Counted from the stretch's first letter, positions 5,383 through 64,000 are shown. The stretch: 64,000 nt of DNA from Balanoglossus misakiensis (GCA_040954595.2 CM082577.2:1488001-1552000); one strand, 5' to 3'. Notes: a model not told the origin generated them from the sequence alone. Translations and numbers: made by a program.

Positions 5383-8300
5383 CTACACAATGCAGGGCGT
5401 GATTTTGTCGTCCTCCGACTTGCCCGGAAGGTCTTTCCTCATTTGCATAGACACACAGCTGAGCCAGCTGCGACTACTTGGCATTTCACCGAATATCTCC
5501 CAGTGGTCTTGCTCTTCGTCGTAGAACTCGATGGTGTCGTGATGTCTGCAGGAAAAAAATTGTACAGGTGCCAGGTTTTAGACTTTGGCTACATTTTCAC
5601 GTCTTTTTTTTTCAATTAGTGAAACCTGCCTATTAAGGACACCTCAGGGACCAGAAATTTTGTCCTTAATAGAAGGGTGTCCTTCATAGACAGGTAATAT
5701 TCTATTTCAACTGTTACTTTTGTCTTGAAAAAAACATTTATAGAGATATATGTGTCCGACTCCGTAATGACAGGTTTCACTGAACATGCAATCTGTTGCA
5801 TTATTTGATGATAGCCAGTTGAGCTTATAAAAATATCATTAAAAAAAAAACTTTTATCACTAGGAATGTAACATGTGTAAAATGTGTAGATTTCCACAAG
5901 TTGGTTTGTCACTGGATTAATCCTTTCACTCCCATATCTCTTTATACAGGTGCAACTTAACCACAGTAAACAATACATTTCGGCCAAACTATGGTAGTCA
6001 AAAACACAATTCACACAGTCTGCTTACCTATCCCAGCCCTCCTCGCCGCCGAGGACGTATATTTTGCCGTCGACCACCGCCACGCCCGGTCGGTACCGCC
6101 TCTCGTGCATCGCAGCGCGGATCTCCCACTCATTCTTCTTAGGGTTGTAACGCTCCACTTTGTTCGTGTTCTCCGTTGAGGCGTGCCAACCTCCTATTGT
6201 ATCACACACAGAGTGCAGCAGAGAGATGCACAGCTGTTAAGCACTGAGTTTAGATGTGGCCAGGCTGGTTGTGGGACTCCAGCCTCACTCTCCAGCCCAC
6301 TGTCAATCATAGTGCCCATTGGATCAACAGATTTACACAGCCTCAGTATTTTATTGGCCCATCTCATACATGCATGCGTTTTTATACATGCTTGAGCAGT
6401 TTTGATACTATGAGGTTAGCGCCGAGTATCGCCCGACGCGTAAACCTTATTATTATACATCTTACACCTCCGTTAGTTCTTGTGTTGCATGTTACTTGGC
6501 TTTCAAAATGCCGATTCAATCGATCGAAAAACGCTCAGTTGACTCAGTGAGCAGCCATGTTTCTTTTTTGTTTACGTGCGTTGGAGTGGGGTGTCTTGAA
6601 ACCGTCCGCATAACAGCGCATACCTGTACACAGTGAGTTGGGGCGCCTTGAAACTCAACCGTTCCGTACGGCTTTTTATTGCACGCTAAATTCTATTGTT
6701 CTCATTGCCAGATGTATAATAAATAGAAATATCACTTACCTATAATGTAAATGTTACCATTGAGTACACAAGCCGCTGAGCCTGATCTGGGGATGAGCAT
6801 TGGTGCCAACTCTGTCCATCTGTCTGTCTTGGGATTGTAACACTGGACCAAATCAATTCCATCACCATCTTCCAACACGGCTCCACCTAGAAAGCATCAA
6901 TTCAATGATCCAGGGTTATTCACAAAATACGAACAACTGATCTGATCTACTCCAATTTGCTTAAACTCAACAATTTTATCAAGAAATTATTTGAGGTAAA
7001 AAAAGCTCAGAACCTCACTTTACCTGTCACATATAGAAGACCTTCGTGGGCCACGACGGCTGGACTGGTCACAGCCATTTTCATGGGCGACACAAAAGAC
7101 CACAAATTCGTCCAGGTGTCGTACCTCTCGACAGACTCCAGCCTAGCCGACCCCTCCCAGCCGCCCACTGCAAATATTGAGCCGTCCACAATGGCTAGAC
7201 CTGAAACCAATGACATGAAATCAACCATTTCATTAACACTTGGACTTCACAGCATATTTGTCCTACAGCCTCTAATGCAAAACTATTTTTAATTCCTAAA
7301 ACATTGCTTATGACATTTTACATAAACAAGAAATGACAGCTTGTATACTGACCTAGTTCAGATCTGGGAATGTTCATTGGCGCCATCTCCAACCAGTGAT
7401 CGAATGCTGGATCGTACCTCCACACATCTTTACTGGCAGAGCCATCAGGGAACTCCCCACCTGCCATGTACATGAAATTGCTCCCTGAAATGTGAAAAAC
7501 ACAATCTTTGAATAAAATAAAACAAATTCAGTGTCCTCAGCAGAAATATTTAGATAACATTTTGGTTAATTTGAATTGAAAAATGCATTGGTTATAAGGA
7601 ATTTCTATTATTTTTCAAAATTAAAAAGTAGGAGCAAATTATTTTATATTTCTCTGGAAAGAACACTGCCTTAAAAATGAGGTTAATTGGCACAAAATTT
7701 GCCATGTTTTAATGTCTCTAAAATTATTCACTGTAGATTAACATTGAAATATTTTCTCTAGACTCATAAATCGCAAGACGAGTTTTCATATCAAACTGTA
7801 TTAATTCTCTATATTTGCTCACAGCAAACATGCAAGAGTGTACATGTATGTACGTATAACAACAGCTCTTGTTTATCGACAGCAAAATGAGATGGTACCT
7901 GAGACAACTAGTCCATGTTTGCTGACAGCAAACGGCAAACATGCAAGGGTCTTCCACTGTTCTCTATGAGGGTCATAACTCTCCACACTCCTCAGAACAA
8001 CTTTATCATCTTCTCCACCAACTGCTACGATCACTTCTATGGTCCCTGTAAGAATACAAATTGAAATGCTGGTCATGAAAAAGCTAAGCTGTATTTAAAA
8101 AATAAATAAAAATACACGTGGGTGTCAACAGCGGGTGAAACCCTCAGGGCAACGTCTTGATGAAACACTGAATCATACAGCTGTAGCTCTAAAATATGCC
8201 ACTGACTCACCAGTTGATCTCCGTGGCCTCGTCCTTGCGCTGTACAGCTGGCCCCTCCTGTCCTGCAGAAGCTGATAGTTTTTGGCCTCGTCCACCAACT

Positions 8301-9099
8301 TCTGACAGACCTCCGACTGCCGTACAGCCGTCTGGCTTTCCACGAAGTCGTGGAGGAAATAGGCACTGACTAACGGAAGACGGATATAGCTGAAGACTTC
8401 TTCAAAGTAAGGCCGTCGCTCCTCGGGGTTAGAGTTGAACCACAGCATGACCGAGTCAAACACGGTCTCCTCCTGTTTGACGTTCAGTTCATCGTTCGAT
8501 ATAAACTCGATCAGCTTGGCGTGGGAAAGTTTGTTGAACTCGTCGTGGGTGATGACGTCCGTGAAGTGCTCCAGCACGTACTTCTTGGACTTCTGTTGCA
8601 GGTCCTTGCAGGAGTGGGCCTCAGCGAAGCAGTGGATCCCGATGCAGTTGGAATCGTCCATGTGCTTGTCCATGAAGCGGCAGCAGGCGTCCCGAACCGG
8701 AAGCACCTCCAGTAAGTTGGCAGCCGACAGCAGGGACTGCACGTTGGCCTTGGTGATGAGCACCTCTGACGTGTACGCGTATTCGATCAGTTGCTCTATC
8801 ATAGCTGCTTCCACGCCATTAATGGACACCTTCTCCTGCTTGCTCTCGGCCAGTTCCCCCGAGAACATCGCCTTGAAGTAAGGACTGAAAGACGCCAGCA
8901 CAAGCCTGTGGCAGAGATACTCCTGTCCGTCCACGCACAGCGTCACGTCGCAGAAGGTGCACTCGGTCCTCAGAGCGTTGAGACCACTCAGCATGTGCGA
9001 CGAGTGCGACTGTTCTCGGAATAGTTCGTCACCTTCATGAGCGGTGGTGACGCCGCTGTCTGAATTGACACTGTTACGACGATTTCTTGCTGTAGCCAT
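5383..9099 (-). CDS. Kelch-like protein (BTB-BACK-6xKelch; Cul3 substrate adaptor family), 606 aa, 7 coding exons
   Basis: Exons (minus strand): 9099-8211, 8045-7899, 7484-7353, 7200-7024, 6886-6740, 6193-6028, 5545-5383. All introns are GT-AG and the total of 1821 nt is in frame. BTB: FCDVTLCVDGQEYLCHRLVLASFSPYFKAMF. BACK: NCIGIHCFAEAHSC...EETVFDSVMLW...IRLPL. Kelch repeats with GG..Y..W signatures: VGGEDD..VESYDPHREQW, AGGEFP..WRYDPAFDHW, VGGWEG..VERYDTWTNLW, TGGAV..CYNPKTDRW, IGGWH..VERYNPKKNEW, LGGEEGW..IEFYDEEQDHW. An acceptor at 9166 implies a non-coding upstream exon. Orthologue not assigned. Confidence 0.93.
5618..5781. mobile_element. Small MITE-like element with terminal inverted repeats, in the last kelch intron
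   Basis: AGTGAAACCTG at 5618 and its reverse complement CAGGTTTCACT ending at 5781, with internal GTCCTT(A/C)ATAGA sub-repeats. The termini resemble Tc1/pogo-derived MITEs (family assignment is inference). Confidence 0.6.
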
Positions 9100-12000
9100 G
9101 ATTTATTCCGGTTCAGACTGCCCCAGTTCAAAATGACTGCTGAGTCGTCTGCAAGCAAGCCTCATCTGCAGCGAGACAAAAAGAGATATACACTAATTTA
9201 AAATTGCAACAATGGCAGCCAAACTGTGGGTCTAATTTTTGTCATCTTTTCGATAATGAAACACCAAAAACATATCACACTTCAAATTTAATTTGTAAAT
9301 ATGCGCAGAGTACCGAATATCTCACCAACAGTAATAACATCACATTGTAAGAGGCTGGAAATGCTCACAGGTCAAACCTATTACATGTTTAGTTATCTTT
9401 CACTTGTGCATAAGTGTTACCATTTATCACAGTTCCTCTCTATATAAAGAGGGACCGTGCCTTTTAAATGAACAATTTCTGCATGATGAATGGCCATGGC
9501 CTTATCTTGGCCATACCACAAGTCTGTTATTTGAAATATTTGACTCTTGACAACCATGACCTGAAATTCCACCTATGGACGTGACCGCAGCAGAATTCGA
9601 TCCTCCAATATTCATTACTTTACACACGCACATAATGTCGTTCTCTACTAACTGTATGTCTGCAGTCTGTGCTTTGGTATTTGGACTAGACCTTCAATTA
9701 GCCTGTCTACAGTACACCATGTACAATATGTAATCATCACAACAAAATGTAAGCGTTTTTCCTGCCAAGTTTCAACGGTAACTTGCGCGGCGCTGCCACT
9801 AGCCGACACATTCACACAACAGTCAACACAACACAACTTCACAAGTGAACTTTCTAATTGATTGATAGCAAGGGGTGCGTAAACATGTCCAAAACTTGTC
9901 GTATAGGAGAGTACAGTACACGTGTTGCATTTTATCCCATCCTACTGAACTTACACCTATCTCATTAAACTTTTCAACATTTCCTTTCAACTGCAAATAA
10001 AGTTTGCACAGGGAAGAACGGAGACATTTGAAAGCCGGAAACTAACCTGTGCAGCGCCATCTTGAATAATGTTATTTCCCACAATGCCGTGATACAACCC
10101 TGATGAAAGGGCTTTTCCGGTACATGTATCTTGGGCATTTGTCTCGGGCTACCACAGACTCCCCCTCTATTAACTATGGTCACAGTAACCGAGAATACAT
10201 TTACAGCAAAGTAAAAAAATACTGCAGCAAACTGTTATTAATATTTGAACAGATGAACGTGCAAAATGCTGTATTTTGTCTTTTGGCTACCCTGTTGACA
10301 ACACAAACGATAGGCTATGCTAGAATTTAGGTTTTTCACTTAATTTCTTTCGTGTTTGAAACGTTCTCCTCATTTTAATGACACAAAAGTTAGCCAGATT
10401 TTGAAACAATAAAAAATATCCCGACCCTGATACGTTCACCCAAAGCAACAGCAAGATGTTTCTTTTTTTTTATCGGAGAGGGCGCCATCACTCTCGTTGC
10501 TCTAACCATTAACCATAGACCATGTCGCTTCTCCCGCTTGACAGGACCGGTACACTTCCCTGAACTTTGTCCGAGAAAGTTAATGGCCGGTCGAGTATCT
10601 TATCGGAAATAGAAAATGCACCAATATCATGTCCTGCACGTATCCAGACTCCTAACAATCATTTTTTCACGGGGGTGCCACCCATAAATCATTTTCAAAG
10701 ACAATCTCCCCTTTGTTGTTTGTCGCCAGTCCTGTTCTCAACACATTATACGTCGTCACGTGAAAATGTGAAACGCAGGTATCCCGCGACAACTTGGGGG
10801 AAGGATGGGTTTTCGATTCACGTTTGATGTCTCCGTTTTTTGAGCCATTATTCAAAACATCTTGGTCGAGAAACCAAGCTGTTCCGGATGAGAAAATATC
10901 ACATGTACGATTTTGCACCATGGGAGCATTTCCCCACCATCGCTCCCACCACACAATAAAATTTGAATTGTTGCTTTCGGGAGGAGACCTAAAAGTACAA
11001 AACTAAGCTATCAGAGATTTCTAAAGAGCACTGACCGATACATTTCTATTTCTCTGTGAAAATTTCCCTCGGGAATCAGGTAGGTGCAGTCAAGACCTAC
11101 CTACATAATCCCAGAATAATCAAAGGCGCGACATATTAAATCGATGATGAGTGTGTGTATTTTTGAATCAATTTTACACATTGTTAAATTAAAGTGTGTG
11201 TTTCGATAATCGGTTCATATTTGGTAACACATGTGCAAGTTTGCATTGACTGGATTGTACCGAGAATACATCACTCACTTGAACCATCACCTACGCCCCC
11301 AGACGACGAAATTGTCGAAACTGCAAGACTCCTCAGGTATGCAGTCAACAAGTGGCTTCCGCAATTCTCGGGATTTTCACACCTTTTACTCGTTCGTCTT
11401 TGTTGGTTTTGGGTTCAGCACTTGCACAAGCCCACTCACCAACCGCGAGGCTACACGACTACAGGAGAATTTAAGTTACTCACAAATAAACAAGAATTAA
11501 ATTAAAACATTCCTTTACATTTCTGTGATATTTTGCGATTGCAATAAAATGTAGAATTCATTTTATCAGTCTAAGGTGTGATCTCATATTTGAAACACCC
11601 CGGTGAAAAATTCTTTGGTTATACAGCGTTCACAAAAAAAACTTGGGGGGGATTGGCGAAGAAGTTGGAACTATGATGATGTCGGGGACCTGAAAAATAT
11701 GTTCATTGCAAAGGGGGCACTTGAAAATATAATTGATGTCAATATGTGCCGTGTTTATGAAGCTTTACTTGGCGGATTTGAAAATGAGGGATATAGGCCC
11801 TATTTCTCCAAATTCTCCCGTCCCCTTCAGAGGTATTTGTGAACTCTGCCTTGGGAAGGATGTTTGTTTTTACAAATTCAACATGATTTATAAAACAAAT
11901 GTATGGATTTAACAACAACAAAAAATTGGCTACGGGATTTGCTTCTCTTCGTGGTGACCAACGATTCGCAACGACCGCTGAACCGATGCGCAAAGTGTGT

Positions 12001-15900: not shown

Positions 15901-17704
15901 ATAAAGCCGTGGCGTTAGAGCGTCCCTACCGCCTCCACCGTTGCAAATCCCGATGGATAAGCCCCACTATGGGAATCTCATCGGGCCGAATTTCTCGTGC
16001 CCTGTCAGTTTCGTCTCAGCGCACCGAGTCGGTACCACCGTTTTTATTGGTCTCGTTATCTCGCGTTGAAAAAAGGACCCTAATTCCCTTGTTTGTTTTT
16101 GCGTTGTCTAAATTACGACACATCACGCCTTCCCAGCAATGCACAATAATGAAATACCGGAGGAAGGCAAGCTCGCCAGCGATTGCACTTCGATAAATTC
16201 CCGGCGTGGTTGGCGTTGGTAGGTATATAGCTGGGACAACGTAATCTGACGCCTTATTCGGTTGTTTTGCAATATCCAACGTGGGATTAGCCTGGCTTTG
16301 CTCGCTTCTGTTTTCATAAAGGTGTGATTTTTTTTTTCAAATATTCATATTGCGCGGTTTCGAGAATGTGGGAACTGGTATACATAACGGACGAGTTACA
16401 ACAGAAAGGCGGGACCATCGCTGAATGGGGGGGGGGGGGGGGGCAGCAGTCGCTGCCTGTTTATATACTACAAGCCGGCTGTGTTGTCTCTTGTATTAGG
16501 AGAATGTTGACGTGACTCTTCAGAGGGTCCTTTAAGCACGATGTTTAGCTTATTATCTCGAGTGTTTTAGATAAGTTACAGTGCCATTAGGGTACTCTGT
16601 TTGTACTGCAAGCGTCTCGCTGACTCGACCAGCGGAGAAGCGATCGGAATAAATGGCCGGTATTTTGTGTCCACGATCCAGTTGCGGCCCGTGCCATACA
16701 GTCTGCGCGTCCACCCTCTTGAAAAACAATTTGAGCACACATCTGATACATTTTCGAGTGAGGTTCCCATGCCTGCTGTTATTTCACTCGCTCCATTGTA
16801 AACAGTAACACGATGCATCTTATTACAAACTATTGGTATAGATGCACTTACTTCGCGCCCACTGAGAGGCGAATGCGCGCCACCACCTATTACAGAAACG
16901 CTAGATGGGCCAGAACGCATGCAGCTGGTATGGTTCACTGGTTAAGGGTGGCAGGGGGGTCCTGTCCGGTTTTACTTTCTCGGGGATAAAAAAAATCCGC
17001 CCGGGGATAAAAAAAAATTCAAGTTTTTGCACTTTCTCCGGACTGGCCGCATTGCTGTAATAAACGCAGGGCCTCTCCGGTGCAGTGGTTTAATTTCCAC
17101 GGGAGCGCGCGCCGGGGATGGGTCGGGATCACAGATAGCACTCGTTACACACATTGGCCGTGTGACGTGTATACGCCAAACAAAAAAATGCGTGCGTGTA
17201 ACGTCCGCCCTTTTAGTGTCCGGCTCCCACGCCGGTCCACTGCCAGCGTCTAGACACACTGTCGCTACATTTATTCATATTGTTGCCATGGCTACAAGAA
17301 TGAAATTTCATTTAAATTGGGGGAGAGAGAATGTTTAATTAGCTGGAAAGTTTTCCAACTTATTCATTGAGGAGCCGGGGCTCACACTGAAGGGATCGTC
17401 TGCTAAATGTATGTACGCCCGCCAAGTCTACGAATGCATTTGCCAGCATTGACAGAGCCAATATATCCACACTCTGCGAGCGCTGCTGTGCGGATCATCT
17501 CAAAGTGTAAATCATGTCGCACGGAGGTAAGCAACGCGGTCTGCCTGCTGCATCACACATGTATGCATTTCTATACCGTTCCGCTGACGGCTAGCTATTT
17601 TCTGGATACTCCCGGAGCTAGATTTATTTTGACAGCGTCATATAATCGTATTTCCTCTTCATTTCTCGTCTCCGTTTCTCTTTTTTTAAACCACAGCCGG
17701 AGTC

Positions 17705-18397
17705 ATGACGCTGCAAACGGAGACTGTGTTTTTGGTGATAGTCGTTGTACTTCTCGGGGGGAGTCACTGTCAGCCGGACTTGCTGCTCGACAGCTCGCCC
17801 CCGAAAACCCCCAACAAGAACTGCAAATATCTGGATCTCCCCATGCTGGATCTGCAGACCATCGGAGGATCCCAGTACACGCCGCCCGCCCACGAGCTCG
17901 AGGATGAGAAAGCGCTGCTTCGTCTCATAGGAGACGACTTCGACGAGGAGTTCATGAGCATCGGGCGGCCCAAGAGGAGGAGGCTGCCGGTGGAGTGGAA
18001 GCTGCAAGGCGACATGCCGGAGCACATCAGGAGGCAGAATCTGAGGCGGTACCCGGACGGCACCAACATGAGGCTGGGGATCGCCTACTTGCACTCGCGC
18101 AAGAAATTCCGCAAGTGGCTCTGGGGGAGAACGCACTGCCCGGTGAAGTACGTCTGGAAGAACCTGGGGAAGCGGTTCTGGCCGCGGTGGCTGAAGATCG
18201 GCGAGTGCTACCAGTCGAAGGAGTCGTGCTCCATCCCGTCGGGATTGTCGTGTTTGCCCAGCAAGTCGACATCGAAAAAAGTGCTCTTCTGGGGCTGCAT
18301 ACGGGACCCTCGAATCGACGACATGTACTGCCGGTGGATCCATGTGCCTTACCCGATTATGACCGAGTGCCGCTGCGGCGGTAACTGTGACGATTAA
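17705..18397 (+). CDS. nog: Noggin (secreted cystine-knot BMP antagonist family), 230 aa; 237 aa if the upstream mini-exon 17514-17526 is used
   Basis: Signal peptide (VFLVIVVVLLGGSHC). Noggin motifs LPMLDL, LLRLIGDDFDEEFMS, KFRKWLWGRTHCPVKYVWKNLGKRFWPRWLKIGEC, SCSIPSGLSCLP, FWGC, CRWIHVPYPIMTECRC. The Cys5-Cys6 loop is short (10 aa), as in canonical noggins. Confidence 0.93.
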   Translation: MTLQTETVFLVIVVVLLGGSHCQPDLLLDSSPPKTPNKNCKYLDLPMLDLQTIGGSQYTPPAHELEDEKALLRLIGDDFDEEFMSIGRPKRRRLPVEWKLQGDMPEHIRRQNLRRYPDGTNMRLGIAYLHSRKKFRKWLWGRTHCPVKYVWKNLGKRFWPRWLKIGECYQSKESCSIPSGLSCLPSKSTSKKVLFWGCIRDPRIDDMYCRWIHVPYPIMTECRCGGNCDD

Positions 18398-38015: not shown

Positions 38016-38804
38016 TTACTTCTTTTCTTTGCATTTACACGTACATTCCGAAGTTACTGGATAAGGTACTTTAATCCAATCACACTTCTTCTTCCTCTTC
38101 TTCTTGGAGCCCTTCTTCTCGCCGTCTTTGGTTCCCCTCTTCTCGCGAGACGGGGTGATATCGGGCGGACCTTGTTTGGATTTCCCTTTGCTTCCCCGGC
38201 AGTGCCAGAACAGCAGCTGTAGCTCGGAGATTTTGCCGGGCTCGCACGCCATTCCCTCCGGCCAAGAGCAGTTCTGGTCGGCGCACTGACCGTCTTTGAT
38301 CCACCGCGGCCAGAACAGTTTCCCCACGAACGTCCAGCGGTACTGGACGGGGCACGCCGCCTTGCGCGCCAGCCAGGCCTGCATCTGTTCCACGGTCTGT
38401 TCGTCCATGGTCACCGTCTCCCCTTCGTCGTTCACGTAGCTGAAGTCGAGCCCGGCGGCTTGCTGTCTCAGGGACTCGGGCACGGCCGTCGACAGTTGCG
38501 CCAGCTGCTCGTCGGGCTCGTCCACCGACATCCACTCCCGATCGAAGTCTCTCCCCAGTTTCTTCTCCAGTTTCTTGGTGCGCAGGTCCTTCGCCTTGGG
38601 CTCGAGCTTGGGGTCCAGCTCCGGCCACCAGAATGTCCTGTTGTTGACCTTCAGGATTGGCGGATCTCGGGACCCGTACAACTGTCTCAAGGATTCCAGA
38701 GTCTTATCTTCGGTGGTGGCCGCACCGCCGGCGTTCACACGTGACACACAGGCCCAATAGCACAGACAGACGATCGTGAAAGCACACGCGTTTCTCCGTG
38801 TCAT
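38016..38804 (-). CDS. Noggin-like protein (noggin domain with an insertion between Cys5 and Cys6), 262 aa, single coding exon
   Basis: ATG at 38804 (the track's 38813 start is GTG). Signal peptide MTRRNACAFTIVCLCYWACVSRVNA. Motifs DPKLEPKAKDL..LEKKLGRDFDREWMS, WLARKAACPVQYRWTFVGKLFWPRWIKDGQC, CSWPEGMACEP, WHC-[38-aa K/R-rich insert]-CDWIKVPYPVTSECTCKC. Confidence 0.92.
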   Translation of the reverse strand: MTRRNACAFTIVCLCYWACVSRVNAGGAATTEDKTLESLRQLYGSRDPPILKVNNRTFWWPELDPKLEPKAKDLRTKKLEKKLGRDFDREWMSVDEPDEQLAQLSTAVPESLRQQAAGLDFSYVNDEGETVTMDEQTVEQMQAWLARKAACPVQYRWTFVGKLFWPRWIKDGQCADQNCSWPEGMACEPGKISELQLLFWHCRGSKGKSKQGPPDITPSREKRGTKDGEKKGSKKKRKKKCDWIKVPYPVTSECTCKCKEKK

Positions 38805-41800
38805 AGTCTCCACGCTTTGTCGTGTGCACAGCTGGCAGTCTCAACACTTGTTACAGAATTCTGGATGGAGTGTCCTCGCGTGGAGTGTCCTGACTGGACC
38901 GGTAGGTTGGGATAAATCTGAGGCCAACTGTCCTAGACTTATTAAACGTACCGGCGTTTCTCGCGGATAGATGCAAAGAGGCGAGTCCTGCAGCTACATC
39001 GAAGTGCGCGTCGAAACTAGAGGTGTTTGGCAGCAGTAAGTTTAGTTTTTTTTTCTAAACGGCTCTCATACGGATACGACACGGAGGACTTGCTGCTGAC
39101 GGTCGCACACTGTTATGCAGTACGTATCCAACTTGCCGACTGGGGAACGGACTGAATCGCACTGCACAAAAAGAGCACTATACTCTCTCGCAAGGCAGAC
39201 ATAAATTAATCGGCAATATAGATTGATTGTTGATAACCTTCTGTACAGTCTGAGGCGGCGGCCGGGGGTGTGGTAGCGGGCCCAATCGGGCATCTAATAG
39301 GACCGTCCGTCCGCACGGGGGAGAGAATACACCGATGTTGATTTGCTCGCTCGATGGACGCTTCTCTGACGTTGCCCACCAAGTCCCAGAGAAATGCACG
39401 CACACACTCGCTTCTTCAATTAACCGCTCGGGTTTCTGCCAGTCAATAGAAGGCGTCGTCAACTGCAGGGCACGTACGCGGCGTAAGTAACCGAGTCGCC
39501 CCACCTACTGATCAGCCCAGGCTCATATCGCTAAAACTTATAGTCCCCCCCCCCCCCCCCCATTACATGTTCAGTGGTATTCTGCGTTTTATCACGTGTC
39601 GTCTACGGTTTACAGCAAAGGTCAGCCGAAGTCTATTCACTGAGAAACCCAGCGCCCCCGGCATTGGCTAAATCATGAAAACTTGTTATGAAAGAATAAG
39701 ACGCCGCCAAACAAACAGAATCTAATATGTGCGAGTTTTTGTTCCCGCCACTGGCGCGACATTTCGAAATGATTTGACGCGTTGAATCTGTCAAGGCAAG
39801 GATAAATTAATATCAATTTAATGGTGGAACGTGCGATCTGTCGCTTAGAATCCAGAGTTAGGTAATAACTTCATACTTTAAATGTCATATTCTGTTTTTG
39901 ATAATGTCAAACGGTAATAAATTGTGAGAGAGGCACTTTGCGTACATGAGATTCGCTTGGAGGACTTTCATTACTGCACGTAATTAGGGGCTATGATCAC
40001 ATGCGCTGGTGTCTCTCTGTGATATTCAAAAGCCATACCAACTAAAACGTGTGTTTCGCATCCCGGCGAAATGTCGATATTGCTGTTTCTCCAGTTCTAC
40101 GATTTCCTTTTACAAATACCAATATTTCAGTGAAAAAAAGAAGGCCTGCGTTAGATCGTGGTCAATTGGTGGAAGTACGGGGTAAGTTGGGAGAACCAGG
40201 CAGCGTTCCTTTGGTTTTACATCTTATGAATAAAAAAACACCGATTTTTTTGTACTGTCCTTAAATGAATCATGAGAGGGTCCGAGTAGGCACAATGTTC
40301 CAAATCAAAGTGTATACGTTAATGTTCCTCTAAGATGGCTTGGACGTGTCAGAATGCTCACCACGTCCTTTGTGCGCATCGTTAAGCACCAGTCTGGCGA
40401 ACCAAAGTATTCAAACCAAAGAATGTGGTTGGTTTAATAGCCATAGTCCCTCCATGGTTTGTTATTAATCAGTTCAATTTCGATATAACTGTCCGTACAC
40501 CTAAAAAGTAAACGCGGGAGGCTTGATAAGTCTGGCGGGAAAAGTTGTCATCACTCCAGGCTCATCACTGCAGTTTACCAGGAGGCATACGCGAATAAAA
40601 TAGCGGCAAACCGGACGTGTAGGCGGTCAGTATAGACCAGGGGTAGTCAATGGCGTAGATACATGAACGCGTTACCTTTACTTTAACTACTTGAGACTTG
40701 AAGCGTCTAATTTAAACAGCGATCACTCACTACTTACGTGAAGTATAAATAAACACGACATTACAATCGCCCCGTGTCCGCCACACAAAGGACAAGCCCG
40801 ACCCGGGTCGCCGTGGTGACGTCACACCTCCATTCCAGGTAAGCCCCCTAGACTAGGGGACGCATGTGATGTGCCGACGGACGGCCCTCGCTGACGCCAG
40901 ACACTTCATTTTCCAGCAAATCATCGCTATTGTTGTCGCGGGCGCGGATTTCTCAACCTGGCGCAACCCGAACTCTACTTCCAGAAATAAAGAAAAACAT
41001 CCTCTTATGGGAATTTCGGATTTCATCAGGAGAAACGGTTGTTGAACTGTCCGTGTTTTTTTTGTCCTTGATGGAAGAGTCTCGCCGGGCTAATTACGCC
41101 GAGACAAATTTATGTCGAAGTGAGCGTTCTTTAGAATTTGCAAGACTCAGACCACTGTACCCCATTAATGTTTACTTCACTATTCTTTAGTGAGAAGACT
41201 CCATTATCCAACCCCTGAAACCGTTGCCCCCCCCCCCTATCAACATCCAGGTATGGCAATATCAAAACTAAGGAGTGCCGGGGTATTGTTAACATGGTTA
41301 CGCAGAAATTATATCAGGTTGCTAATTATCGTGTTTTTCACAACTGTATTGGCCGAAAATATACCATATCATTATACACAATTCTGACGCATAGTCTGAG
41401 CCAAAAACAATATCAAAACCAAATCAGATCGACACAATTTTTTAAAATCCCGGCGCCACCATAAAACGAGTTAGTCACCGTGGTTCTCTTTATGAATACA
41501 TAACCCCCGAGACAAATGGTCACGTGGTATAAAGTTTGAGGGAACGTTTATTTCATCAAACAGTCATCACCCCTTAACTTTTAAGTCAAGGCAATGCAAT
41601 CACCATAAAAACCTTAATTTGATGCTTCTTACAGCTTGAAGTTGTGTGTGAGTGGGTGACCGCCATTATTTAATTTAGATATTACTCATGCTTGCCTATG
41701 GGGGCGAAATGTAAAATGACAGTTAATTTTGCGCCGTTGAAGTCGATACTTGTCAAGCCGACGGGGAGGGTAATCGATCACTTGGCCAAAAGGATATGAC

Positions 41801-44690: not shown

Positions 44691-47600
44691 ATGAATTCGA
44701 ATCGTGAAAGATGCCGTGAAGTCCTCGAGGAAGACTATCTCCGGTGCAAGTATATCCCGAAGCAAAACTGTAACAAGAACGTAGTGAAACAGGTAAGCGA
44801 ACGGCGTTTCAATGTTCTGTTGCAGTCCGCGTTTAGCTATAGACGTCATAACCTAGCACTTTTGATAATGCAGCGTGTGTATCACGTGAAAGCAGTAGCG
44901 AAGGTGTGTGGAGCTTAACTTCCTGGTTCTGAAACCACGGGGCAAAATAGATACGGCACAAGGTTACGGGTACGGGGCGTATATGTGGCGATGACTTCTG
45001 TATTTCGTCCCGACATGGACGGCTAAACCTCAACAACCACCAAGTGACGTTCATGGATCAGGGTGGAGTCGGAGAGCCAGTGTTGGTGGTTGCTTTTGCA
45101 GTCAAAATTCACACTGCTCTGGCATTGCTAGTTTGCATGATTTAGTATTGAAGGACTGAAATTCAATGCAGTTACATGTAATTATGAGCTTAGTTGTCAC
45201 AATGACACCGTTGCAATGATTCGGAGTGGTGCTTGCAACAGAGCCCGGACAAGCATTTAAAAAATATCATACTCTGGATCTCACACTTTTTTTTGAGGGG
45301 GGGGGGGGGGGGGTGGATAATTTAAATCTCCGGGAAGTACTAAGATGTAGTTTCGTGATCACAAAGCGCGTTCCTGTGTGTCCAGTAGCCGTCATGACAG
45401 ATCGTCACGGCTCAGGGAAATCACCTTTGCTGGGTCCATGCCGGGGTCACTCAGCTATGCGAGAAATGCGCACGCATTCGCCTTGTATGAACTTTTATCT
45501 CGACGTCTCTTGCTTTATTGCTTCCTGCGTCGCACGCTCAAATTTTATAGTATAGTATAGTATAGTATAGTATAGTATAGTATAGTATAGTATAGTATAG
45601 TATAGTATAGTATAGTATAGTATAGTATAGTATAGTATAGTATAGTATAGTATAGTATAGTATAGTATAGTATAGTATAGTATAGTATAGTATAGTATAG
45701 TATAGTACAGTACAGTACAGTACAGTACAGTATAGTATAGTATAGTATAGTATAGTATAGTAGTGCTAAATTTTAATAGGCCAGTATTTTCATACTGTCT
45801 GTCTACTCAGTTCCCTACAACATGTTGACATGACCAATATATTCAGCTTTATATCACAGCCTATAATATGAGCGAGAGGAACACACTGTCGAAATTGTAG
45901 TTGTTGCGCAGTGATCAGTGACCTGTAATCCAATCTCGTCTTTCTGAAACCGACCTACATTTTAGTATCATGTACCTCGGGATGGATTTTCAGGGAAAAA
46001 TGATAATCTCCCCAAACCTTCCAATTCCTTGTTGAAAACAAAGTCGAAACCTAGATGTTCACCGACTTGTTGTAATGAAAACCTCTACTTGAAATTTTCT
46101 CCATAGACTTAACACATAGAGCGGGCGGCCATTTTGAATTTCAAATTTGAGAAAATGTCACTCTCTCATTCAAAATGTTGCACGGTGACACTCCGATTTT
46201 AATCTCAATTTTAAAAGACAATAATCTGAACTTGACCTGGCCAAATTATGAGAGAAAGTTGAAGATTTCCGAAGCGCGTTCTTACTACCTTGAATTGAAC
46301 TGGTTTATTTACAGGAAGTTTTCGCAAGGCTGGAGGTAGATGAACGTCCCAGTTCCGTTGCCTGCAGCAACGTTCCCGGAAGTACAGGTAAGAGAGTCGG
46401 CGAATATTATGGTGCATGTATTTGTCGTGAGCTGAACAAATATTGACATTATGTGCGTGATGGGAAGTTTTTGGTTCGTGACTTGTCTCCCTTTTATCGT
46501 ACAAATCCAAAATGTATCAAACATGTAAATGTTCGCCCGTATTTTGTTTCAGTAATGGATTTTTCTTTTTTTTTAAATCAAGAAAAACATCATAGCTCAC
46601 CGCGGAAACTTCTGGATTAGAGACGGAAATTGCCCCAAATCTGCCATTATTTTAAATTCAAAATGGCCACCAGTCTCTGTCCTGGCGTGAATGATTACTA
46701 TGTGCCCGAAAGCTGGCCACTAGAAATTGCTTTTTGCTCAGTCGAAGATGCTTAAATGATGAACATGGACCTAAGCAGACGTGATATAGGGCTTTGCCTT
46801 CAATAGGCAATGACGCGGAGACATCTCATCAGTCTTTCAAAGAAATAAAAACTTACGTCGCTTTTCCCTCATTATAGTTTGTTCAGTTAACTCATTACCT
46901 TTCACTATTCCAGTGTATTTGACGCTGGAAAGAGTAAAGGGAAGGAATAGCCGTGTGCCATGGAAGACGTTCGAGCTGCGCCCGGACAATTTCTGTGGAG
47001 TGGACCTTGGTCCCCGAGAAAGAGACGGCAAGAAACTGGTGCTCATCTTCAAATCCGACAAGGACAATGGAACTACAAGTCTGCTGCAGTTGAAAGCGTC
47101 AAAGTACATCGCCCACTGCCTCAAGGTGTCCGACAAACCGGACATGACTAGATGGAAAGACAGGGTGTTGAATTTGCTGATGGACAAAGGTACATATCTT
47201 CCTCCACATCGATATCTTTTCCTTATTTGCACGGTAGATTCAAACTTGGCGACACGTGCATGGGTGGATGCATGCGGACGGATAGGTACAGGACACGGTC
47301 GTGTCAAAATGTGGTACAAATTCATGATACACTTTCTAATTTCTTACAGAGCAACATTACGAAGTGGGCATCTCTCAGGCACATGGCGATCTACCGGCGG
47401 GAACTATGAACCTCTACGTTTTGCCGAAAAGGATGGTTTTGTGTACTCTGTTTAACACGAAACGTTCGCTCCCGGAGTGTGTCATGGATCAAGCAAATTC
47501 TAATTTTGACTTGTCCTACAGTCCGGGGGAGCGGGTATACATTTTGAGAGTCCGGGGGGAGTCGAACAAGAAATTCCTCAGGACAAAGACAACGGACGAC

Positions 47601-50600
47601 AGCGAGCGAATCGCTCGAAAATTCGACGAGTTCAAATTAAGCCAGGGAACGGAAGTGAGCGCGGACTCTGTCGTTGAGGAGAACCACAACCCCACAGAAA
47701 GCGGGAATCGGGACGCACCGACGACAAACTCTGTAACCAGTGAAACCACCAGGCTTTGGCGGGAAAGGAGGGGTCTTCGGGGAGGATCCCAGCGAGTATC
47801 TCACCCTAAACCGGACGTCCATCCGACAAAGGAGATATGTCACAGTTTCCAGGGTGCTCCCCCGATGCCCAACCGCTGTCCAAAGCCGGCGACGTGTCGG
47901 TGTGCGGAGTGCCAGCCAGCTGAGGATTGGTACGTCAACCAGCCAGGGGTGCCACCCCCGGTACCCGCTCGCCAGCAAAAGGTCAGTAGCATGTGTGGGA
48001 CGGGTATTTGTAATGTTTAGCCACTGCACTGACAGCCAGGTGGATAGCAAGTAAGCAGGCACTGTTGTGGTGCAACGTGGATGCGTGTGAATTTTCCCCG
48101 AAGCTAATGACCATCCCACTGCAGTAATCTAGTTTATTTGACCAAAAATGGCACCAATACAGCACATTTTCGACGTTAGGCCGTTGCATAAGATTGCACT
48201 GCGTAATATGCAGTCACTCTTCGTTGACTTGAATGGACAAAATAAATTGCCACCCATTCCCCCGACTGACATTTCTTCTGTCGCATTTCTAGGCTGTCTT
48301 GGAAGTGACTGTCGCTGTTTTTGCTGGAAGACCTAGCCTAGGCGGGAGATGGATCGTAGATGTATACGTTGTCCACCCGGAGAAAAATCCCCTCGCCATA
48401 GTAAGTCAGAACTGGAAGCGGCCAACTGGTTGCAACCAATTTATTATTACTTTGCTCAATGATTGGGTCATTTGGTATAACACATACGGGTGATCCAGGC
48501 TCGAGAAATAACACGACTGAACACAAATAAATGGCATCTTGGAATGTATGTCGAAGAAATTTTGAGGCCGTAAAATGAGTGGCAGAAAAGAAGCTATTTT
48601 AGTATTTCACCAGAAAGTCTGACAACGTCATTCATTTCTTCCAGAGAGAAGCGCTGCAACAGTGTAAAACGAGCAAAGACCACATCGCCCTTCCGCCGCG
48701 TCGGGTCGAAGTGACCGACACACTGGTGATCAAGATACCCAAGTTACAGAGAGGATGGCGCTTCGAAGGCGATACTCAGTCTAAGGTGGGGTATTACTAA
48801 ATGCCGCTGTTTGCGAGTGAGTGAGTTAAGAGTGGCTATAACTAAGTGATAAGCCCACGCGTGACTCTGCGTTGACTTTTTGCTGACACGTGATGCAACA
48901 TCCAATTTGACGGACAAAACATCTGTGACGATCCACCACCTCGGAGGTCTAAACTTAAACTTGAGTCAGCTCTCGCTCACCAGCTCCGTATCAGTGATGC
49001 TTGGTGGGAAAGTAATGTGTGGCATTTCAAGTTCTGGTTCCAAAAACCGGTGAACTTCTGCATTTTTAAAAGAGAGTCTTTGTTTGGAAATTGTTGTGAG
49101 TTCAAAGAGAATATCGCGACACACTTCGCATTCCGTTGTCATTCGGCCAACTGCGAAACACGCATACTTGAAGGTTTAGGCATATCATAAAGAGCTATGT
49201 TAAATGCAGAGATCGTAGAAATGGTGGGTAATACAAACAGATTGCACGGGGGCAATACTCCCACCACTCATCTCATTGAATTACTAAGAGTCCATCCCCT
49301 TTTACCCTTCAGAATAGCTTACCTGTTTTCCAGTCTCGACCTTTAACCTTTGTGATCCAGTCAGTACCAACGAACCGCACTCAGCATTGTTGACAAATCT
49401 GTTGGAAATAAAAGAACACGAGATGAAGTCAGTGGTCGCGTTGCCGCATGCCAAAACTAACTATTCCGTAGTTGAATACGCCGCCATTAAAATATTTTCC
49501 ACTTCTGTACACAGATATTTGCCTACGAGGAAGTGGAGAGGATCGCAACAAAGCGTACCCTTGACTGTGTTTTGGATGAAGGGCACACTTTCGTCATCGC
49601 CCACGATGCCAGGCTAAACCAGGACAAATTCCACTGTCAGATTCAAATCAAAGGTCGGAAAAATCGAAACGATGTGATATACAACCTATCAACGAACTTT
49701 AGGACTTATGTAAGTAAACGGGTCTTATATGTTCAAGAATTCAAACAGAAATATTGTATATAGTACATAAACTACAGAGCCCGTTCGACATCAGTTCTGT
49801 ATGCACGTCAATACAAAGATACATAACGATTATTTCTGCAAATCACGTGAAGAAGGTTACCAATATTAATTATTATATGTGGAATAATGCATTGCAAAAT
49901 GTTGGCAATGTCAGCTGCAGCGGATAGTGAAACTTTGAAAATTGAAGTGCATGTCGGTGCGACCCATGCTGTGCACGTTGAGAAAAACCGACATCTGTGG
50001 ACACCTGTGTGAATATACAACCCGTGTCCACCATCAATTTCCATGAAAACAACCAACAAAATGTTATATTTTCGTGCAGGCAAAATCGGGTGAACGATTG
50101 GGGGAGTCGGACGTGGACAAAATGGCGGCAGAGATTCACAGACAAGGGACAGATATGCCAGGTTGGTTAACTTACAAGAAACTGGCGGAAATCAGCTCTC
50201 TGTTGACGCCATATTGCACCCTTGGGAACGACTGGCGCACCGTTTTGGACTACGCCGGTTTCGACTTTGTTGTTATCGACGAGGTGGAGCGAACTTTCGC
50301 CCGGACGGGGATCAGTCACGGCGAGCTGGTGTTGCGGCTGTGGTGCCGGATGAAACCGGACGAGTTCACGGAGGAGAAGCTTCGAGACGCGTTCCTGAAG
50401 ATGGGGAGGGAAGACGCCGTGTCTGTCCTGGCTGGAGATGACGAGGAAGGAGATGGACGTCGTTGTGTAAGGGAGACCGGAGGTGACCCGTCTTGTGAGT
50501 CGTGCGCGTGCCGCGTCAACAAGAACAATAGTGAATCGTGGCCAAGCTGTGTCAGGCCGAACCACGTCGAGACATGTGCTGACTCTGCAGACGCTGGTAC

Positions 50601-50901
50601 TAGCGGTGGTCTCACCAGTCAACGGCACTTCTGTAATCCAGTCTCGGAAAGATGTGAACCCACGTCGCCGCCGTGCAGCGAGTGCCACGCCGGTCACGAC
50701 GGAATGTCAGTGCCGCCGGCGTGTGGCGGTGGCGGAGACGAACATAATATCCCTGTCGCCCCGGAGTCGTCGAGCCAGTGCACGGCCCAGGAGGCGAATG
50801 CCACCGAATCGGCGCACTACGAGGTGTTACCGGGGGATGCACAACGGAAAGATTCTGATCTGAACAAAGAAAACCTCGACTTGAAAACAGGTGCGCTGTG
50901 A
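44691..50901 (+). CDS. Adaptor A: Dok-7-like PH-PTB, pY/Pro-rich linker, UPA-like domain, death domain and Cys-rich tail; 782 aa, 8 coding exons
   Basis: Exons 44691-44792, 46315-46387, 46914-47189, 47350-47981, 48293-48400, 48645-48785, 49515-49709, 50080-50901. All GT-AG; phases 0,1,1,0,0,0,0; 2349 nt in frame. PH: VLEEDYLRC..EVFARLE..VYLTLE..PDNFCGVD..KLVLIF..DMTRWKDRVLNLL. PTB-like: HYEVGI..GTMNLYV..MVLC..FLRTKTTDDSERIARKF. UPA-like: LEVTVAVFAG..IVDVYVV..GWRFEG..HTFVIAH..FHCQIQIKG. Death domain: ISSLLTP..GNDWRTVLDYAG..LVLRLW..LRDAFLKMGREDAVSVL. Confidence 0.8.
45546..45760. repeat. (TATAG)n pentanucleotide microsatellite with a TACAG variant block, in intron 1 of adaptor A
   Basis: Seen directly. 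Confidence 0.97.
45960..46293. mobile_element. Degenerate non-autonomous DNA-transposon-like repeat
   Basis: Contains TTTTCTCCATAGACTTAACACA-GGCGGCCATTTTGAATTTCAAA and TTGCACGGTGAC, and ends in ACTACCTTGAA. A related inverted fragment (TTAAATTCAAAATGGCCACC) lies at ~46652-46671, and a possible related terminus (TTAAGATAG...CCTCGGGGACAGAT) at ~42484. Family not determined. Confidence 0.45.
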
Positions 50902-52690: not shown

Positions 52691-55600
52691 ATGGAGAGTA
52701 CTCACCACAGGGGCACCGTTATCAAGACGGGAATTTGGCGCTGCAACGCGCAGGACCCGAGTAAAGGCAGAGGAAAAGTAAGTGCCACATAATTGCTGCC
52801 GATCGACATGCGGAAGACTTCAAACCTGATATTGTTATAAATACTGTTAATAGGATTGTATCGCCGTGACGTGATGATTTTTGGCCAGTTTCACATCACT
52901 TCTTCCCATGTCTTACGAAAATACGATCAGCACGAGAAACTTTTTTATAAGATGGTAAAATCGCGTAATTGTTAAATTAATATGTATGTATACTAAATAC
53001 AGCATAATTTGGTATGATTTACACAGCAACGAGTAAAAGTTTCTATCGAAGTAGACGATGGTGGGATGATTCCAGCTGAATCTGGTAAGCGCAATAACTC
53101 CATGATATTGGCCAACAAGTCAACAACACGGAAAACCAGTTTTCACATATTCCATATCTTATACATGTAAATAGTAAACATTCTTTAGTTTAACTGTAAG
53201 AAAGCCTTTCGACCGTAGGTCACATTTTCTGTACAACTCCGTTTTTGTGATGAATTGTAGACTCGCATTGGCGTAATAACCAAAGCCTGCTTTTGAAGAG
53301 CAGGCTTCTGAACAAACAAAAAACGCCAAATCATTTTTGTCACATTGCATAACCATAAACAGGCCGGGGATTCCCCGGGTTTCTTTCCCCTGTTTCGGTG
53401 GGCCTACTTCCTCCTTGCACAAGCGGCAAGATATGCGTGGACCGGCCGCTTCACTTGCTTCGGGCCGAGATACAAGGCTTGGCACGAAAGTTCAAAAGTT
53501 CAGACAAACACGACGGTAGTTTCTCGGGGAATTCGGTGATGTCGTTTGAGGAGTTGTCCCCTTTGTGTAAACCGAAAGTAATATGACTTTGTTTACTGTG
53601 GGTACGTTATACGGCATCTCACGTTATGACGCATGGTATATCGTATATTAAAGTACGGTCACTCATGACCGTGATTAAAGCAGCTTCGCTACACGCACAG
53701 ACCGCGTGACTATAGACTATAGGACAACTTTAAAATTGATGTCTGTAAGGATTTGGGGTAGGGCACGGGTGGCAAATGGCGAACTGGGACACGACAGGTC
53801 TAGGAAGTCCTATCCCGTGACATAACAGGAAATACTACCCGCGGCTCTCACGGTTACCTTCACGCCGGCTACCGTGACTGTAACGGTGATTCGTGTTGTC
53901 AGCTTTTTTGAACGCGTGTTTCTTTCAAGTCGCCCACACATTCGATTTCGTAAACTTTTGATTTGTTTACTACATACATTCTAACTAGGCTTTTTGCTAC
54001 CTGGTGAGTGATAAAAGGGGTTCAGAAGCAAAATAAATGTCAAGTCATAAGCTCACTAAACTGATAATTGTAAAGATATAACTTTTAGACACCGATTAGT
54101 CATGAAATACAGTCCAGACACTCTAGAAATGGGCCCCGGCAGGGGACTAGGACCAGACTATGGTAGAAGTGTTTTCATATGATTTGACTGTCGTAATTAC
54201 ACGTATTGTATCTCTCCACAGTAATCATCAACCTTTACAAGCTCGCAAAGGACAGTCCCCTCATCTCGTCGACCAGAATCACGCAGGACAACTTCTGCGG
54301 CGCCGCCACCAGCCACATGCAGAAGACCTGCAAATCGTTGGTCATTCTGTACAAGACAGAAGAGGGCGAGAATAGGGGTATTCTGCTTAAGGACGGAGAC
54401 GGTTGCCCCAGCGTGGATGAACTCAAGTGTCGATTCCTGCAAGCGCTTCTGACAGAAAGTAAATGAATGATGATGATACATATTCACGCTTTCCTAGAAA
54501 TTGAGTTGGCGAGGGAGGGGGGGGGGGTACACAGTTGCCAAAAACTGGTATAAGTGTCTCTGTATATGTTTTTGTGACAAGTTTCTGGCTTTCGTGTTTT
54601 TGTGCCATCTAATGTTTTTATAATTTTTCTTGACAGGACAAATTTACGAAAATGTCGAATATGACGGGGAAATGAGGAATTTGTACGTGCTCAGAAGAAG
54701 GGTGGTTATGTGCAGACTGTTTTCCAAGACCGGCGGACTCCCGGTCTGTTGCTGGGATTCCCCGGTGGAGGCGTTGAGGAGGTCGTACTGCCGAGCCGGG
54801 GACGCGGTGTACGCGTTGAAACTGTCGGGCGCGGATAAGCAGGGCGCGGAGATCACCACGTTCCTCAAGACGAAAACATCAGACGACAGCGAGCACATCA
54901 ACACCACGGTGCAGAAGTTCGTGTCGGCGATGGATCGTGAAAGTCGCGGCAGTGACTGCAGCAGTGTCGACAGCGGGGTCGGAGACTCGGGGAGCGAGAC
55001 TGCCATCGCCGACAGCAGCCCGTCGCATGCGGACGATTCGTCACCGACGATTTCGCCGCCGCGCGTTTGGGTGGCGCAAGCGCGCGCGGAACTGATCGAG
55101 TCGCCACCGATCTACGCGCGCCCGGGAGATTCGGGCGACGATTCCCCGGCTAGCGACGCCACCGCCGGCGCCGAGGCGGAAGAAAAGTCAACTGGACTGT
55201 CCGAAGCGTGTCGGAGGAACTCTCTGCTTTGCAATCAAGACAGCCAAGAAGATCCCGTTAAACCGCGGTGTTCCTGCCCATCGTGCATCTCAAACTTGTC
55301 GGCCACTGTGCGTGATATGCCCGTGGGTATGGCACTACACGACAACCACTATGTAAATACCCAAGTCTATGAGAATAATCTCACGGAAAACGAAGAAATC
55401 ACCAAAGCGGTTCCAAAGAGACCGCCCCCTCCCTTGCCCAAGAGGACGTATAAGGTTAGTTGAGTCACAGAAGCAAGTCTTGTCAAGTACTCTAGAGGCC
55501 TTCATCATTATCAAACTTTCTAAGTCAATATTTAATAACTACTTTTCTCCTATTTCGAGGAATTGGTCACTCCCTGCTTCTGTTAATTATTAAACCGAAA

Positions 55601-56059
55601 ATCCAGTTTGGTTCGATGGATCCTAGATACTGGACATTCCATAAATGATCAGTGAAATTAATTCTTTCGTTTCAAATTTTCAAGTTCAATTTCTGTCTTC
55701 TTTTATAGAAGGAGCTGACCGACATGCAGCGTTTGATAATGTTGATCGACAAGAGGAACGACCAGGACAACGACTGGTTCACGTTTGAAGAACTTCACCA
55801 GATCAGCGAGCTGCTGTCGCCCGTCTGCCCGCTGGGCCACGACTGGCGAAGGCTGGTCGACTTCGCCGGGATCAGCATCACGGAGTTGGAGGGCGACATC
55901 GACGCGGTGGCCGCTCACTCGGGAAATTTGCCCGCGTACCTGTTCTTGACCTTGTGGCGGAAGGTGAGACCCCTGGACTGCAACAGGCAACGGGTCAAAG
56001 ACGTTTTGGGCGACATGGGCAGATACGATGTTCTCAGGGTCGTCTTCAAACAAGACTGA
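52691..56059 (+). CDS. Adaptor B: Dok-7-like PH-PTB, Ser/pY/Pro-rich linker and death domain (no UPA); 516 aa, 5 coding exons; paralogue of adaptor A
   Basis: Exons 52691-52777 (an in-frame ATG also at 52682), 53027-53084, 54222-54458, 54637-55454, 55709-56059. GT-AG; phases 0,1,1,0; 1551 nt in frame. The PH starts VIKTGIWRC. Shared with A: IEVD/LEVD, DNFCG, LVILYK/LVLIFK, NLYVL, FLKTKTSDDSEHI/FLRTKTTDDSERI, CxCxxC, YVN, PPPxPxR. Death domain: ISELLSPVCPLGHDWRRLVDFAG..LFLTLW..VKDVLGDMGRYDVLRV. Confidence 0.82.
53366..53376. promoter_or_regulatory. Near-palindromic kB site GGGGATTCCCC in intron 2 of adaptor B
   Basis: Matches the 11-bp p50-type kB consensus GGGRNWNYCCC; motif match only. Confidence 0.35.

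Positions 56060-58911: not shown

Positions 58912-64000
<5,089 letters not shown>

Follow-up and report, generated by a model that had tools for sequence, protein, structure and literature searches.

Why should a UPA domain, usually described within a ZU5-UPA-death-fold module whose ZU5 either keeps it closed or has to be cleaved away, be encoded by a gene that has no ZU5? The question is raised by three short exons in a 64,000-nucleotide stretch of the genome of the acorn worm Balanoglossus misakiensis (GCA_040954595.2 CM082577.2:1488001-1552000; hereafter, the window). A preliminary description had read them as a UPA-like domain present in only one (A) of two paralogous adaptor genes, A and B, and as a visible record of exon shuffling. 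ZU5-UPA-DD modules (DD, death domain) are autoinhibited (PMC9162469 and PMC8897508), and in UNC5B ZU5 binds both the UPA and the DD, suppressing signalling (PMC8897508).

Exons of gene A and fold of the segment

Gene A consists of eight exons on the + strand (44691-50901), which join into a single open frame encoding a protein of 782 amino acids, protein A:

44691..44792, + strand: exon 1, aa 1-34, in which the first PH-fold domain begins; placed by open frame and donor, aligns to the N-terminus of the Ptychodera protein P0001
46315..46387, + strand: exon 2, phase 0-1, PH-fold domain; aligned with P0001
46914..47189, + strand: exon 3, phase 1-1, PH-fold domain; residues 14-251 of the P0001 model match the Dok7 PH-PTB
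47350..47981, + strand: exon 4, phase 1-0, predicted PTB-like PH-fold domain (aa 151-250), then a disordered linker
48293..48400, + strand: exon 5, 108 nt, phase 0-0, first part of the UPA, aa 362-397
48645..48785, + strand: exon 6, 141 nt, phase 0-0, middle part of the UPA, aa 398-444
49515..49709, + strand: exon 7, 195 nt, phase 0-0, last part of the UPA, aa 445-509
50080..50901, + strand: exon 8, death domain at about aa 546-627, then a poorly conserved tail

The UPA segment of protein A (aa 362-509, 148 aa) is thus encoded by exons 5-7, which have GT-AG sites throughout, and it directly precedes the death domain, found by Pfam Death from about aa 546. In a simple consensus count the acceptors of exons 5-7 ranked in the top 0.6-1.6% among 800 AG sites, and the donors of exons 5, 6 and 7 in the top 6%, 21% and 1.5%, respectively, among 880 GT sites. 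Splicing of the three exons is predicted from these sites and from the NCBI protein models of three further genera, in which the exons are conserved, and with the open frame of 782 codons this upholds the three symmetric phase 0-0 exons first described. Indeed, a six-frame search of the window with a UPA profile built without protein A picked out exactly exons 5-7 from 2166 window segments (E values of 6e-12, 7e-11 and 9e-10; next best, 1.3). The three stretches matched consecutive parts of the profile (2-38, 33-78 and 80-138); no exon on its own encodes a whole domain, the three together making up a single beta-sandwich. Removal of the three exons together keeps the frame and leaves a product of 634 aa, so that skipping to give a B-like isoform, as had been suggested, would be possible by frame, though the suggestion is unsupported. 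Intron 1 of gene A contains a long TATAG pentanucleotide repeat (window 45550-45765).

Fold models were built for the Ptychodera orthologue P0001, 59% identical to A in the segment, rather than for protein A, with eight sequences in the alignment. The AlphaFold model of the P0001 UPA segment alone (pLDDT 82, pTM 0.79) was compared with 48,161 chains, among which the best match was UNC5b 688-828 (Z 12.5, rmsd 3.1, 134 residues aligned), followed by the UPA of NLRP1 (Z 8.2), that of CARD8 (7.2), the best unrelated chain (7.1) and ankyrin-B (6.8). Of the eight highest-scoring chains, four belong to known UPA-containing proteins, and UNC5b stood more than 5 Z units above the best unrelated chain. 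Foldseek returned the UNC5b structure, 3g5b, as the sole match below 0.001 (E 1.1e-6), and the ESM Atlas's own model of the segment matched the UNC5 UPA with a TM score of 0.72. In the full-length AlphaFold model of P0001, also from eight sequences and with a pTM of 0.35, residues 372-516 superposed on UNC5b 688-828 with Z 12.9 and rmsd 2.8 over 134 residues, and the top Foldseek match was again UNC5b (E 1.3e-8). The resemblance to the UNC5 UPA, noticed in the preliminary description, was therefore confirmed at the level of predicted structure. Part of a bacterial TIR-domain cluster in the ESM Atlas also aligns to the segment (TM 0.65), below the bar for naming a family.

The sequence is less telling. 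The segment is 13-17% identical to UNC5b, and the Pfam UPA model (PF17217), which had been proposed as a check, gave no match above the cut-off in the single exons or in P0001, P0002, P0003-P0007 and P0010, whereas the same scan does detect the UPA of the Ptychodera ZU5-UPA-DD protein P0009. On this UNC5-like protein our UPA-only profile scored 2.6 bits, a value equalled by 3 of 1000 shuffles. UPA identity would thus be marginal if judged by sequence alone; judged by the models, the assignment of the segment as an UNC5-type UPA domain appears sound.

The absence of ZU5 extends beyond gene A, in line with the preliminary description: Pfam ZU5 matched none of the seven UPA-bearing family members. 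A hidden ZU5 exon in the 311-nt intron preceding exon 5 (47982-48292) was ruled out, as there are stops in all three frames. In the full-length P0001 model the region directly before the UPA is a low-confidence coil.

Relatives and neighbouring domains

A search with exon 4 returned one protein, XP_070580820 of Ptychodera flava (P0001), which is 50% identical over aa 3-639 of A and contains the whole UPA segment; a search with the UPA segment returned the Glandiceps talaboti protein P0002. Over that segment identity to A is 59% in Ptychodera, 53% in Glandiceps and 45% in Saccoglossus. Taken exon by exon, identity to the P. flava orthologue is 67, 72 and 42% for exons 5, 6 and 7, 23% for the linker and 18% for the tail in exon 8 (5-18% across orthologues); among hemichordates, exons 5-6 are conserved as much as the DD or more.

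A two-sequence profile run against 1.84 billion protein representatives gave 13 matches, seven of them UPA-bearing (Ptychodera, Glandiceps, two Saccoglossus and three Branchiostoma), one B-type (Glandiceps P0005) and one the ZU5-UPA-DD protein P0009 of Ptychodera; the WD40 protein P0008 and P0011-P0013, which match in the DD only, were left out of the family count. Among 10 of the 13 matches, those checked by name, there is no echinoderm, tunicate or protostome, and the sole vertebrate match, P0012, lies in the DD only. Since the profile held two sequences and the amphioxus members scored just 2e-16 to 4e-5, more distant members could be missed by it. A word-based search with an alignment as query scored 7995 candidates and recovered none but the first row of that alignment, and is uninformative on the range of the family.

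In the reverse direction, a UPA profile made from amphioxus proteins only matched A at 366-509 with an E value of 2.6e-16. All four of the aligned amphioxus members have the UPA, as do the two Saccoglossus copies, one of which is partial, and the PH-PTB-UPA-DD layout is common to Saccoglossus, Glandiceps, Ptychodera and amphioxus. In the seven UPA-bearing members Pfam recognizes Death only, plus FN3 in the amphioxus proteins P0007 and P0010; the acorn-worm proteins thus show nothing but a death domain to Pfam, and their architecture is invisible to standard annotation. In the Saccoglossus protein P0004 the counterpart of exon 7 is missing, as is much of the first PH domain, and the end of its exon-6 part is joined straight to the start of its exon-8 part; the gaps may be due to a modelling error, to decay or to the skipping of exons. 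Among the Branchiostoma proteins P0006, P0014 and P0015, which all have the doubled UPA-DD, two isoforms differ by one glutamine in the first UPA, about two codons from the exon 6/7 junction of A, a difference such as a tandem acceptor would be expected to give. Both cases make the exon junctions look old. In Branchiostoma belcheri P0020, a family member is fused to an OGFOD2-like sequence, likely two neighbouring genes merged in the model.

Upstream of the UPA, residues 14-251 of the P0001 model match the PH-PTB pair of Dok7 (3ml4; Z 12.3, rmsd 4.4, 186 aligned; Foldseek E 1.3e-4). The second PH-fold domain by itself fits the IRS-1 PTB (Z 12.1, rmsd 1.9, 97 aligned), and IRS-1 PTB, FERM-C and Exo84 PH tie at Z 12.1-12.3. 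The N-terminus is therefore predicted to be a tandem PH fold like the Dok7 PH-PTB, which agrees with the PH-PTB pair originally proposed. Neither Pfam PH nor Pfam IRS (PF02174) matched the single exons or the family members scanned, an ESM Atlas search with P0001 1-255 gave PH-like rows all with TM below 0.5, and the match between hemichordate and amphioxus N-termini is modest (hhalign 74%, E 2.8e-5). In DOK and IRS proteins, an arginine of the pocket strand takes part in phosphotyrosine binding. Visual comparison of that strand in the family alignment with the DOK/IRS motif found the basic residue (arginine) in B of the window and in two of three aligned amphioxus proteins, and no arginine in the A-type hemichordate proteins, which makes phosphotyrosine binding by A doubtful.

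The linker that follows is disordered and ranges from 30 to 143 residues across the family, with low pLDDT at P0001 257-372. In A, its exon 4 portion carries a YxN tyrosine (Y345) and a PxxPxR motif, which are of the kinds recognized by SH2 and SH3 domains, respectively. Nine of the 12 linkers contain YxN, as do seven of the eight that have a single tyrosine; these are raw counts, uncorrected by shuffling, that include two near-duplicate pairs.

At the other end, Pfam Death (PF00531) scores 24.7 bits in A and 31.6 in B, against a cut-off of 22.6, and residues 545-641 of the P0001 model match death domains (ankyrin-G DD, Z 12.0, rmsd 2.3, 88 aligned). A phmmer search of the PDB with P0001 gave weak DD matches only, and the best solved match for the death domain alone is UNC5. 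A 10-sequence family profile aligned to UNC5B (chain 152-401) in one unbroken run that starts at the first UPA strand and extends through the whole DD (E 4.5e-10), scoring 41.8 bits on UNC5B UPA plus DD versus 32.6 on a DD-only UNC5 chain; hhalign of the family to P0009 gave 98.2% over UPA plus DD. In Branchiostoma P0006 a PH-PTB-like unit is followed by UPA-DD twice. The unbroken alignment and this doubling suggest that UPA plus DD was likely the unit joined to PH-PTB. Vertebrate UNC5 genes have phase-0 introns after residues 185, 235 and 290 of the 3g5b chain and none known at the ZU5/UPA border; the three later introns of A would then lie, on the alignment of the family profile to UNC5B, within one codon of these positions.

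What a UPA without ZU5 may do

The account that we think probable as a whole is, jointly, that the segment is an UNC5-type UPA in a conserved PH-PTB-like/UPA/DD protein born of an old fusion of DOK-like and UNC5-like parts, that this protein is a receptor-docking adaptor in which the ZU5-free UPA aids clustering of the DD, and that B lost its UPA exons. The PH-fold pair would recruit protein A to the membrane or to a receptor tail, and the YxN and PxxPxR motifs of the linker would recruit SH2 or SH3 partners. The UPA, free of the ZU5 clamp, would then concentrate death domains locally and thereby nucleate a DD partner. Recruitment, instead of ZU5 release, would be the point of control, and B would act as a UPA-less, weaker or competing form.

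There are precedents for parts of this scheme. PIDD1, NLRP1 and CARD8 are described as cleaving themselves at the end of ZU5 (PMC3210808 and PMC9162469); the resulting PIDD1-CC and NLRP1/CARD8 C-terminal fragments resemble A in having a UPA and death-fold unit apart from ZU5, and differ in being made by autoproteolysis, whereas gene A encodes no ZU5. By analogy, protein A may be encoded from the start in a form corresponding to the UPA-death-fold fragments that PIDD1 and NLRP1 release from ZU5. Filaments of the NLRP1 and CARD8 CARDs require the UPA (PMC11874512 and bioRxiv 10.1101/2020.06.27.175497), and engineered DED-PTB/SH2 chimeras turn tyrosine-kinase signalling to apoptosis (PMC2575513).

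The main rival keeps the same architecture and origin and takes the UPA for a binding surface for another protein, not a self-association module; we regard it as a serious, if lesser, possibility. The UPA of A is of the UNC5 type, its closest fold being that of UNC5b (Z 12.5), well above the UPAs of NLRP1 and CARD8 (8.2 and 7.2), and exons 5-6 are as well conserved as would be expected of such a surface. In UNC5B the UPA by itself suffices for co-precipitation of LRP6 (PMC8897508). However, a partner of the UPA of A is only hypothetical, and the tandem UPA-DD of amphioxus P0006 suggests that valency matters.

Alternatively, the PH-PTB pair might take over the role of ZU5, folding back on UPA-DD so that the protein stays closed as long as no receptor or lipid is bound. 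The pair occupies the place in the chain that ZU5 has in the autoinhibited ZU5-UPA-DD modules (PMC9162469 and PMC8897508), and the A-type PTB-like domains, which do not have the basic residues of B, have room for another role. Nevertheless, the disordered linker, of such variable length and poorly conserved, makes the fold-back unlikely; the full-length model, with its pTM of 0.35, is weak evidence either way.

Compared with UNC5, the family shares the UPA fold followed by a death domain, both spanned by the one profile, and differs in having no Pfam match to ZU5, Ig or TSP and in having the tandem PH-fold unit and disordered linker upstream. The DOK/IRS/FRS2 adaptors (Dok7, 3ml4) are alike in their N-terminal tandem PH folds and in the disordered region that follows, with YxN and PxxPxR as candidate docking motifs, whereas A has no Pfam IRS or PH match, its phosphotyrosine pocket is putative, and it ends in UPA-DD, which is not known from DOK proteins. 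SH3BP4/MACC1 and the ankyrins are likewise cytoplasmic scaffolds with UPA and DD and are weaker matches (TM 0.64-0.66; ankyrin-B Z 6.8); unlike A, they retain ZU5 and lack a PH-PTB.

In the literature searched, largely the main texts of openly available papers, we found no description of a PH-PTB-UPA-DD protein or of a ZU5-free UPA; the excerpts of PMC8195603 mention UPA only together with ZU5. All of the domains are known, and it is their combination and the ZU5-free UPA that appear undescribed. In some ESM Atlas clusters ZU5 is present in under half of the members, so ZU5-free UPAs may occur elsewhere, or these members may be fragments. We put forward only tentatively, as a reading that may well prove too ambitious, that we are dealing with an old deuterostome adaptor family, which our searches did not detect in vertebrates and in which DOK-like docking is hard-wired to a ZU5-free UPA-DD nucleator; it would be a natural PTB-death-fold chimera in which recruitment replaces ZU5 release and B serves as a built-in damper. 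That UPA-DD is kept without ZU5 in acorn worms and amphioxus indicates that a UPA can persist on its own. A and B form a natural pair with and without UPA at one locus, a clean system for the function of UNC5-type UPAs, to which the double UPA-DD of amphioxus adds. If the proposed mechanism is true, receptor docking would be linked directly to death-domain signalling in invertebrate deuterostomes.

Paralogue B and the order of events

52691..56059, + strand: paralogue B, PH-PTB-linker-DD, 516 aa, no UPA
52691-52777, 53027-53084, 54222-54458, 54637-55454 and 55709-56059, + strand: the five exons of paralogue B

The intron phases of B (0,1,1,0) are those of the first four introns of A, and blastp aligns the two proteins over the N-terminus (E 6e-19) and over the DD (E 3e-17). 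As the preliminary description had it, B joins its linker straight to the death domain, across a 254-nt phase-0 intron; the UPA profile gave no trace in B or around it, which rules out a remnant there. B has an orthologue in Glandiceps, P0005. Its N-terminus matches hemichordate A-type genes with E values of 5e-20 to 5e-12 and amphioxus genes with 0.045 or worse, and trees place the A and B types together versus amphioxus with support of 94/97 for the DD and 100/99 for the N-terminus, one near-duplicate amphioxus row being omitted from the latter. With four outgroups, and another such row omitted, support for the A plus B branch is reduced to 56/80, and a tree with all UPA-bearing genes together and B outside is not rejected by the AU test (p=0.075). 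Later loss of the UPA exons by B is therefore favoured, not proven. The PH-PTB-UPA-DD layout in amphioxus and the unbroken alignment to UNC5B make it likely that a UPA-DD block from an UNC5-like gene was fused to the PH-PTB unit before the split of hemichordates and chordates.

The order implied at first was the opposite one: the UPA would have been inserted by exon shuffling into a B-like PH-PTB-DD ancestor, its phase-0 exons recording the gain. The four introns around and within the UPA are indeed all phase 0, as is the one intron of B at that place, and the tree with B outside, not being rejected, would allow this. We nonetheless consider it quite improbable. Gain by A specifically does not fit the layout shared by Saccoglossus, Glandiceps, Ptychodera and amphioxus, nor the much stronger resemblance of B to hemichordate A than to amphioxus; and shuffling of the UPA alone does not fit a DD that is also nearest to UNC5 and aligns with it in one run with the UPA, or the repetition of UPA-DD as a unit in P0006. 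Phase symmetry does not demonstrate a gain: A and B have 11 introns between them, of which 7 are phase 0, and the exons are mere fragments of one domain; under the favoured loss, it would have offered B a way to shed the UPA block cleanly. Finally, the view that the segment is non-coding or forms some generic beta-sandwich, as the silence of Pfam UPA and the low identity to UNC5b might suggest, is largely refuted and very improbable, given its conservation in three other genera and amphioxus and the known UPA proteins that make up half of its eight top structural matches, the first far above any unrelated chain.

Intron 2 of B contains a 15-nt stretch (window 53989-54003, + strand) with an acceptor before it and GTGAGT after it, a candidate micro-exon that would keep the frame. 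Four further genes were noticed in the window:

8173-9102, - strand: BTB-BACK exon of a kelch-like gene, a side observation
17690-18397, + strand: single-exon gene of the noggin family (Pfam Noggin, E 2e-48)
38016-38840, - strand: single-exon gene of the noggin family (Pfam Noggin, E 8e-41)
59461-63774, + strand: exons of a cytidylyltransferase gene

The cytidylyltransferase gene is, to judge by its translated motifs, likely of the PCYT2 type, and the two noggin-family genes face each other, upstream of gene A.
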